Below are positions 21,658 through 23,976 of a stretch of DNA of 64,000 bases, piece after piece. The number at the start of each line of letters is the position of its first letter. The first letter of the stretch is position 1. The stretch is from Escherichia coli (GTDB lineage: Bacteria; Pseudomonadota; Gammaproteobacteria; Enterobacterales; Enterobacteriaceae). Made by a program: the position numbers and the translations under genes. Location of the stretch: assembly GCF_002854065.1 (NCBI RefSeq), contig NZ_CP024147.1. One strand, 5' to 3'. The notes beneath the pieces were generated by a model, which was not told the origin of the DNA, did not search any database, and saw nothing but the letters and a program-made list of their open reading frames with translations.

Positions 21658-21823
21658 TGTCTCTCGCCTGGGGTGGAAACGGTTGGCCGCAATCGCGACA
21701 CATCATCAGTATTTTGCCGCAGTATAACATGAAGGCGTCTTTGTTGTTATGCAACGGTTGGAGCAGCGTTCACCTGACGCTATACTGCTTCTCTTTCTTA
21801 TTGCTCAAACTGTCGACATTACT

Positions 21824-22615
21824 ATGCCCGTTTTTGCTCTGCTCGCGCTTGTCGCCTACTCCGTCAGTCTTGCGCTGATTGTTCCCGGTCTGCTGCAAAA
21901 AAACGGCGGCTGGCGGCGCATGGCTATTATTTCTGCGGTCATTGCGCTGGTCTGCCACGCAATCGCTCTGGAAGCCCGCATCCTGCCCGACGGTGATAGC
22001 GGACAAAACCTCAGCCTGCTGAACGTTGGTTCATTGGTCAGTTTGATGATCTGTACGGTAATGACCATTGTGGCTTCTCGCAATCGTGGCTGGTTGCTGC
22101 TACCCATTGTCTATGCCTTTGCGCTTATCAACCTGGCGCTGGCGACCTTCATGCCCAATGAATACATCACCCATCTGGAAGCTACGCCTGGGATGCTGGT
22201 GCACATTGGCTTATCGCTCTTTTCCTATGCCACGCTAATTATCGCCGCCCTGTACGCGCTGCAACTGGCGTGGATTGATTACCAACTGAAGAACAAGAAG
22301 CTGGCGTTTAACCAGGAAATGCCGCCATTGATGAGTATCGAGCGTAAAATGTTCCACATCACGCAGATTGGCGTGGTGCTGCTAACGCTCACGCTTTGCA
22401 CTGGCCTGTTCTACATGCACAACTTATTTAGCATGGAAAATATCGACAAGGCTGTGCTCTCTATCGTGGCGTGGTTTGTCTATATTGTGCTGCTGTGGGG
22501 ACATTATCATGAAGGATGGCGTGGACGCCGCGTCGTCTGGTTTAACGTTGCGGGTGCAGTCATTCTGACACTGGCCTACTTCGGCAGCCGAATTGTCCAG
22601 CAGTTAATCAGCTAA
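21824..22615 (+). CDS. ypjD: Inner membrane protein YpjD (cytochrome c assembly-like family)
   Basis: Start moved to MPVFALLALVAYSVSLALIVPGLL...; polytopic membrane protein. Confidence 0.85.
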   Translation: MPVFALLALVAYSVSLALIVPGLLQKNGGWRRMAIISAVIALVCHAIALEARILPDGDSGQNLSLLNVGSLVSLMICTVMTIVASRNRGWLLLPIVYAFALINLALATFMPNEYITHLEATPGMLVHIGLSLFSYATLIIAALYALQLAWIDYQLKNKKLAFNQEMPPLMSIERKMFHITQIGVVLLTLTLCTGLFYMHNLFSMENIDKAVLSIVAWFVYIVLLWGHYHEGWRGRRVVWFNVAGAVILTLAYFGSRIVQQLIS

Positions 22616-22635
22616 ACCCAGAAAAGGAGTTTCCC

Positions 22636-23922
22636 CTGGAACACATTTCTACTACTACGTTGATCATTATTCTGATCATCATGGTGGTCATTTCAGCCTA
22701 TTTTTCCGGGTCCGAAACCGGAATGATGACCCTGAACCGCTATCGTCTGCGACATATGGCGAAACAGGGTAATCGCTCGGCCAAACGCGTCGAAAAATTG
22801 CTGCGTAAGCCAGACCGCCTGATAAGCCTGGTGTTAATCGGCAATAACCTGGTCAATATTCTTGCCTCCGCGCTCGGCACTATTGTTGGGATGCGTTTGT
22901 ACGGCGATGCGGGCGTGGCAATTGCGACTGGTGTGCTGACCTTTGTGGTGCTGGTTTTTGCCGAGGTGTTGCCGAAAACTATCGCTGCGCTATACCCGGA
23001 AAAAGTCGCTTATCCGAGTAGTATTCTGTTAGCACCGCTGCAAATTTTGATGATGCCGCTGGTCTGGTTGCTGAACGCTATCACCCGCATGTTAATGCGC
23101 ATGATGGGCATCAAAACCGATATCGTGGTCAGCGGCTCTTTGAGCAAAGAAGAGTTGCGCACTATCGTGCATGAATCGCGCTCACAAATTTCCCGTCGCA
23201 ATCAGGATATGCTGCTGTCGGTGCTCGATCTGGAAAAAATGACCGTTGATGACATCATGGTGCCGCGCAGTGAAATTATCGGTATTGATATCAACGATGA
23301 CTGGAAATCGATTCTGCGCCAACTCTCCCACTCACCTCACGGGCGCATCGTGCTCTACCGTGATTCGCTGGACGACGCCATCAGTATGCTGCGAGTACGT
23401 GAAGCCTGGCGGTTGATGTCGGAGAAAAAAGAGTTCACCAAAGAAACCATGCTGCGCGCCGCGGACGAGATCTATTTTGTGCCGGAAGGTACGCCGCTCA
23501 GCACGCAGTTGGTAAAGTTTCAGCGCAACAAAAAGAAAGTCGGCCTGGTCGTCAACGAGTATGGAGACATTCAGGGGCTGGTGACGGTTGAAGATATTCT
23601 GGAAGAGATTGTCGGCGATTTCACTACATCGATGTCGCCAACACTTGCCGAAGAGGTCACGCCGCAAAACGACGGTTCGGTGATTATCGATGGCACCGCC
23701 AACGTGCGGGAAATCAACAAAGCCTTTAACTGGCATCTACCGGAAGATGATGCCCGCACGGTTAATGGCGTCATTCTTGAGGCACTGGAAGAGATCCCTG
23801 TCGCAGGCACCCGCGTGCGTATTGGCGAGTACGATATAGATATTCTCGACGTACAGGACAATATGATTAAGCAGGTAAAAGTTTTTCCTGTGAAACCGCT
23901 GCGCGAGAGTGTGGCGGAGTAA
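22636..23922 (+). CDS. yfjD: CorC/TlyC-family membrane protein with CBS domains
   Basis: Open frame reads (CTG)EHISTTTLIIILIIMVVISAYFSGSETG...; AAAAGGAG lies 6 nt before the CTG; first in-frame ATG is 45 nt further on (22681), and the ORF-track start at 22660 is itself a TTG. Confidence 0.75.
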   Translation: MEHISTTTLIIILIIMVVISAYFSGSETGMMTLNRYRLRHMAKQGNRSAKRVEKLLRKPDRLISLVLIGNNLVNILASALGTIVGMRLYGDAGVAIATGVLTFVVLVFAEVLPKTIAALYPEKVAYPSSILLAPLQILMMPLVWLLNAITRMLMRMMGIKTDIVVSGSLSKEELRTIVHESRSQISRRNQDMLLSVLDLEKMTVDDIMVPRSEIIGIDINDDWKSILRQLSHSPHGRIVLYRDSLDDAISMLRVREAWRLMSEKKEFTKETMLRAADEIYFVPEGTPLSTQLVKFQRNKKKVGLVVNEYGDIQGLVTVEDILEEIVGDFTTSMSPTLAEEVTPQNDGSVIIDGTANVREINKAFNWHLPEDDARTVNGVILEALEEIPVAGTRVRIGEYDIDILDVQDNMIKQVKVFPVKPLRESVAE

Positions 23923-23928
23923 CGAAAA

Positions 23929-23954
23929 CGGCCCTGCATTCGCATGCAGGGCCG
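23929..23954 (-). terminator. grpE intrinsic terminator
   Basis: ggccctgcat-tcg-catgcagggcc hairpin; T-run follows on the minus-strand transcript. Confidence 0.6.
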
Positions 23955-23976
23955 TGAATTATTACGAAAACAGAAA

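Follow-up and report, generated by a model that had tools for sequence, protein, structure and literature searches.

The gene yfjD (b4461) of Escherichia coli is very probably translated from a CTG codon at position 22636 of the window, giving a protein of 428 amino acids that begins with formyl-methionine. This is a rediscovery: the CTG start of yfjD is an annotated and experimentally supported fact, and both its confirmation and its annotation are older than a decade. The window is a stretch of 64,000 nucleotides from E. coli (RefSeq assembly GCF_002854065.1, contig NZ_CP024147.1). A 301-nt query around the site matched 5,425 of 5,426 complete E. coli genomes and was 100% identical to an O157:H7 record. 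The region carries, in this order, ffh (-), ypjD (+), yfjD (+) and grpE (-). The features of the region are collected in Table 1.

Table 1. Features of the ypjD-yfjD region, in coordinates of the window.
Feature	Position	Strand	Basis
ypjD CDS, cytochrome c assembly family inner-membrane protein	21824..22615	+	RefSeq annotation of the 100%-identical O157:H7 record
Shine-Dalgarno sequence AAAAGGAG	22622..22629	+	sequence; anti-Shine-Dalgarno duplex; AAGGA core conserved in 80 species
Pyrimidine-rich 6-nt spacer TTTCCC between Shine-Dalgarno sequence and start codon	22630..22635	+	sequence
CTG, very probable initiation codon of yfjD, presumably read as fMet	22636..22638	+	RefSeq CDS starts; PMC3531124; comparison of 80 sequences
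yfjD CDS, 428 aa plus stop, predicted CNNM/CorB-type HlyC/CorC family transporter	22636..23922	+	Pfam; PDB relatives; RefSeq coordinates
yfjD codons 2-8 (EHISTTT), short N-terminal tail before TM1	22639..22659	+	codon conservation
TTG codon 9, formerly annotated start and start of the mechanical open reading frame; very probably an internal Leu codon	22660..22662	+	
First in-frame ATG, codon 16, inside TM1	22681..22683	+	chosen by gene callers that disallow CTG
GC-rich hairpin of 12 pairs, ACGGCCCTGCAT GCGA ATGCAGGGCCGT	23928..23955	-	terminator-like site in pattern scan

The start site and its annotation

An earlier note on this DNA had placed the start of yfjD at the CTG, without recognizing it as an established fact, and its account of the local sequence stands. 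A strong Shine-Dalgarno sequence, AAAAGGAG, lies 6 nt 5' of the codon, within the spacing of about 5-9 nt at which such sequences function; the best duplex with the 16S anti-Shine-Dalgarno sequence upstream of the CTG has a free energy of -8.2 kcal/mol, which places it within the strongest 0.9% of the positions sampled in the window. The nearest in-frame stop upstream is TAA at 22606, the frame is open from 22609, and there is no canonical start codon between this stop and the CTG. Downstream of the CTG the frame continues with GAA CAC ATT TCT ACT ACT ACG and then TTG (codon 9), followed by ATC ATT ATT CTG ATC ATC and, 45 nt from the CTG, by ATG at 22681 (codon 16). Because the TTG at 22660 is the first ATG, GTG or TTG in the open frame, a mechanical list of open reading frames gives a protein of 420 amino acids. 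Codons 2 to 8 would be untranslated if the start were this TTG or the ATG. The combination of Shine-Dalgarno sequence and CTG is not a chance pattern.

The literature, the RefSeq annotation and the comparisons described below all support initiation at the CTG. EcoGene 3.0 (Zhou and Rudd, NAR 2013, PMC3531124) treats yfjD in a section entitled 'CTG start codon verification', where the CTG start is given as experimentally confirmed and is credited to Dague and Rudd, unpublished results. Expression is reported there to have been lost when the CTG was mutated but not when alternative starts were, mutation of the TTG at codon 9 leaving it unaffected. That the experimental support consists of a database paper citing unpublished results counts against full certainty. 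In the K-12 MG1655 reference sequence (NC_000913.3), yfjD (YP_026171.3; 2748774-2750060, 1287 nt / 428 aa) has CTG as the first codon of its CDS, as it does in GenBank U00096, and over the stretch compared the K-12 start region reads as that of the window. The CDS starts at the same CTG in four other RefSeq E. coli records, including the most divergent match (92.6% identity). The record in EcoGene, U00096 and NC_000913.3 concerns the same gene and the same codon, with the same conclusion and no difference.

Our search of the literature on the yfjD start codon returned only the EcoGene paper, a study of the MazF regulon and a CNNM structure preprint. No initiation-profiling table listing yfjD was found in that search, and the supplements of the TRAINSPOTTER N-terminomics study, consulted for N-terminal peptides, hold no YfjD entry. 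The remark in the earlier note that CTG initiation is rare in E. coli is correct.

Conservation of the start site

If the CTG is the start, then the codon that occupies its position in related bacteria should be able to initiate translation, and coding constraint should begin immediately 3' of it. We took the locus from one genome each of 79 further Enterobacteriaceae species, which together with the window gives 80 sequences. The codon homologous to the CTG is CTG in 37, TTG in 30 and GTG in 13, so that in more than half of the sequences precisely this position holds a canonical start codon. An AAGGA-type Shine-Dalgarno sequence precedes the start codon in all 80, and upstream of the start nothing but this AAGGA core forms a conserved block. 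In codons 2 to 8 the first and second positions are 99-100% conserved and the third position 77%; an amino-acid change within these codons is found in only five of the 80 sequences. Judged by this pattern, codons 2 to 8 evolve as coding sequence. An ATT at 22645 was also considered as a start codon and rejected: it lies 15 nt from the Shine-Dalgarno sequence, and codons 2 and 3, which precede it, show the conservation of coding sequence.

Of the 5,425 E. coli genomes, 4,701 share the same 54 nt from the Shine-Dalgarno sequence to codon 10. Three variant genomes were examined and all keep both the Shine-Dalgarno sequence and the CTG; the differences are synonymous third positions (codons 4 and 7), a substitution between the genes, a 1-nt insertion in the spacer and a 9-nt intergenic duplication. 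The insertion, a C between Shine-Dalgarno sequence and CTG in the O157:H7 strain Z1830 (L095), extends the spacing to 7 nt and would be tolerable because the spacer is non-coding. The duplication (TAACCCCAG), in strain ChlosBP-23-1 (L002, 1556-1575), lies just 3' of the ypjD stop codon.

The YfjD protein

The domain content of YfjD bears on where its N-terminus can lie. The Pfam CNNM domain (DUF21, PF01595) matches residues 11-184 (E 1.3e-53; 181.8 bits, cutoff 28.4), a CBS domain (PF00571) scores 35.8 bits (cutoff 24), the CBS-domain structure 3HF7 is matched by residues 201-330 (E 2e-74), and CorC_HlyC (PF03471) matches residues 344-418 (E 2.3e-19). When YfjD is aligned to the CorB/CorC structures 7M1T/7M1U and 7CFF/7CFG, its residue 10 aligns with their residues 9-11. 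As the alignment begins at residue 10, a tail of about nine residues before TM1 is the family norm; and since the CNNM match begins at residue 11 and the structures at residue 10, initiation at the codon-16 ATG would cut into TM1, as the earlier note had foreseen. The phylogeny in the CNNM structure paper places E. coli yfjD (P37908) alongside Salmonella CorB. Going by family membership, YfjD would be an inner-membrane protein engaged in the transport of Mg2+ (divalent cations).

Distant homologues and truncated database entries

A search for homologous proteins returned only relatives of at least 86% identity and did not extend the phylogenetic range. For a more distant set we took 131 full-length cluster representatives with 34-50% identity and projected their N-termini onto E. 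coli coordinates. The N-terminus falls most often at residue 1 (42 proteins) and in 86 lies between -3 and +4; it falls at residue 9 in one and at residue 16 in two. A further 13 of the 131 start at Met30/31 and have no TM1.

The starts inferred for ten more distant loci are TTG (five), GTG (two), ATG (two) and CTG (one), in a sample that is biased, seven of the ten having been selected because their genes looked miscalled. The single CTG belongs to a metagenomic CorB homologue with 44% identity (L086, 505-530), where GGAG is followed after 8 nt by CTG GAA CAT ACA ACT (L-E-H-T-T). There is no ATG, GTG or TTG until the middle of TM1, and the gene call is truncated to Met31; this homologue, too, probably starts at CTG.

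Truncation of this kind recurs in public collections. Entries for YfjD/CorB from JGI, Logan and ENA with 413 (P0100, P0102) and 411 (P0121) amino acids begin at Met16, and further proteins in the collections (P0130, P0158, P0185, P0187, P0195, P0212, P0219 and others) begin at Met16 or at Met30/31. P0121 is the representative of the 50%-identity cluster nearest to E. coli YfjD. The truncated calls arise where the true CTG, TTG or GTG start was missed. The sources presumably use gene callers that do not allow CTG as a start; the YfjD entries at NCBI have 428 amino acids. We found no report of the truncated JGI, Logan and ENA entries in the literature searched.

Alternative start sites

Two downstream codons compete with the CTG as the sole start. 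Were the CTG and the Shine-Dalgarno sequence before it a coincidence, translation could begin at the TTG at 22660 and yield a protein of 420 amino acids: TTG is a canonical bacterial start codon, it is the first ATG, GTG or TTG in the open frame, and a protein beginning there would retain the full CNNM domain, which starts at residue 11. The duplex with the anti-Shine-Dalgarno sequence is +2.8 kcal/mol at this codon, which thus has no Shine-Dalgarno sequence, as had been noted earlier. In the 80 species codon 9 is CTG in 49, CTC in 11, TTG in only 8, CTA in 7, CTT in 4 and TTA in 1; as a freely synonymous Leu codon it is ruled out as a conserved start. The coding pattern of codons 2 to 8 lies upstream of it, an N-terminus at this position occurs in only one of the 131 distant homologues, and the finding that mutation of the TTG leaves expression unchanged (PMC3531124) contradicts it. 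A start at the TTG is in our view extremely improbable. The ATG at 22681 is chosen in several automatic gene calls, with a product of 413 amino acids, and in its favor are the superior efficiency of ATG as a start codon, its presence at codon 16 in all 80 Enterobacteriaceae sequences and the public proteins that begin at Met16. The neighboring residues of TM1 are, however, equally invariant; in distant relatives the codon-16 position is not Met, and only two of the 131 homologues begin there. The duplex at this ATG is +0.6 kcal/mol, again without a Shine-Dalgarno sequence, the 15 codons upstream are conserved as coding sequence, and a protein starting here would lose the first five positions of CNNM and about a third of TM1. 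The Met16 entries, for their part, come from the sources that presumably exclude CTG, and not from NCBI. We therefore hold initiation at the ATG to be exceedingly unlikely.

It is also conceivable that the CTG is the main start and that a minor, truncated isoform arises from the TTG or the ATG, for example after cleavage by MazF at ACA sites in codons 2-4 (22641-22645). In a study of the MazF regulon (PMC5001579) yfjD is listed as polysome-associated and with a cleavage at an ACA that lies 17 nt away from the start; only the ACA at 22641-22645 agrees with this distance, counted to the superseded TTG at 22660. Judging from its text, the validation by primer extension in that study did not include the yfjD site. 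With the CTG as start codon, the cleavage site falls inside codons 2-4 and not in the 5' UTR. [quoted passage not shown] The very poor initiation at CUG in reporters leaves room for a minor downstream start beyond the reach of comparative data, but such an isoform would lack part of TM1 and would have no Shine-Dalgarno sequence, and the case for it is inferential throughout. We consider dual initiation very unlikely, and return to the CTG as the start of yfjD.

The ypjD-yfjD gene pair

The CTG lies in a compact arrangement with the gene upstream. The stop codon of ypjD (TAA, 22613-22615) is 20 nt before it, and in 74 of the 80 Enterobacteriaceae species the ypjD stop is found 12-30 nt upstream of the yfjD start. 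A ypjD-like gene (Cytochrom_C_asm, PF01578) is directly upstream of the CorB homologue in seven of 11 distant places, among them L084, L085, L086, L088, L092 and L093; this recurrence indicates that the tightly packed pair of ypjD and yfjD is old. A pattern scan of the intergenic region found no promoter or terminator between the two genes, which is consistent with their co-transcription. The start of ypjD presents a second start-site choice in the same operon: the mechanical open reading frame begins at an ATG at 21749 (288 aa), 75 nt before the RefSeq start at 21824 (263 aa; 'MPVFALLAL...').

In six species (L008, L018, L023, L024, L027 and L030, comprising Raoultella, one Citrobacter amalonaticus, an Enterobacter sp. 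and Intestinirhabdus) ypjD and yfjD are separated by 104-159 nt, against the usual distance of about 18 nt. All six have a CTG start with GGAG, and this rules out coupling to ypjD as a requirement for the use of CTG.

The hairpin downstream of yfjD (Table 1) is a palindrome between the convergent genes yfjD and grpE and could fold on either strand. It is probably a terminator, shared or bidirectional, that marks the 3' end of the unit. A regulatory RNA structure at the CTG was also considered. The fold of 22596-22690 has a minimum free energy of -21 kcal/mol (z = -1.84), 10 of 200 shuffled sequences folded as well, and the UCCAG in the 3' end of ypjD with which the CTG is predicted to pair is not conserved in sequence in other genera; the candidate was dropped.

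Initiation at CTG and the strength of the Shine-Dalgarno sequence

On CUG the first codon position is mismatched to the initiator tRNA-fMet, and residue 1 is formyl-methionine and not leucine; IF3 discriminates against such non-canonical start codons. The position of the yfjD start, its Shine-Dalgarno sequence and the coding conservation from codon 2 are established here or in the literature. Initiation may then proceed as follows: the strong Shine-Dalgarno sequence would position the 30S subunit with the CUG 6 nt downstream, initiator tRNA-fMet would read the CUG with its first-position mismatch, and residue 1 of YfjD would be formyl-methionine. Translational coupling or re-initiation, favored by the nearness of the ypjD stop codon at 20 nt upstream, may add to this, and the start would be expected to be sensitive to IF3. 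In reporters, initiation at CUG reaches approximately 1-2% of the level of AUG, compared to 10-100% for GUG and UUG (bioRxiv 10.1101/063800). Given this low level, expression of YfjD is likely to be low: the CTG would keep output down and the strong Shine-Dalgarno sequence would offset this in part.

The distribution of start codons provides further information on this point. None of the 80 sequences has ATG as the yfjD start, and a neighbor-joining gene tree suggests approximately ten changes among CTG, TTG and GTG. The Shine-Dalgarno sequence is GGAG in 32 of the 37 sequences with CTG, whereas in 42 of the 43 with TTG or GTG it is GGA followed by A, C or T. In nine phylogenetically independent pairs of CTG and non-CTG sequences, contrasts that rest on the gene tree, the CTG member has the stronger Shine-Dalgarno sequence in eight (two-sided sign test, p = 0.039). 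This is suggestive of compensation in yfjD, a weak start codon being matched with a strong Shine-Dalgarno sequence, and is not conclusive. Neither the absence of ATG, nor the association of CTG with Shine-Dalgarno strength, nor the CTG start of the 44%-identical relative was found reported in the literature searched.

One reading of these data is that a weak start has been selected in the corB/yfjD lineage, output being held low and tuned jointly by start codon and Shine-Dalgarno sequence. The grounds for it are the approximately ten codon changes that never lead to ATG, the contrasts in eight of nine pairs and the CTG in the 44%-identical relative; we regard it as possible, if doubtful.

There is precedent for a functional weak start in infC, which has an AUU start codon and is autoregulated by IF3. 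There, too, a weak, non-canonical start is conserved and its use depends on discrimination by IF3; the regulatory loop of infC has been demonstrated, however, and the codon of yfjD is not fixed, alternating among CTG, TTG and GTG between genera. A second parallel is hda on the E. coli chromosome, where translation likewise begins at CUG with initiator tRNA and for which automatic annotation first picked another start; hda encodes a regulator of DnaA inactivation, yfjD a membrane transporter. A CTG start was predicted for yghF' in the same EcoGene analysis as for yfjD, from conservation and inspection of the ribosome-binding site, but yghF' is a pseudogene fragment whose CTG start could not be confirmed, whereas that of yfjD was (PMC3531124).

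Implications

The start of yfjD is itself of little import beyond correct annotation, and both the reference genome and EcoGene already record it. Gene callers blind to CTG still yield YfjD/CorB proteins in which TM1 is missing in part or altogether; one such protein represents the E. coli cluster in a large protein library, where it can mislead the prediction of structures and work on topology. The alternation of CTG, TTG and GTG to the exclusion of ATG, with Shine-Dalgarno sequences of matching strength, would illustrate, in a small and clean case, how start codon and Shine-Dalgarno sequence compensate for each other. If a weak start has indeed been selected in this lineage, then the output of a homologue of Mg2+ transporters may be sensitive to IF3 or to the translation status of the cell.
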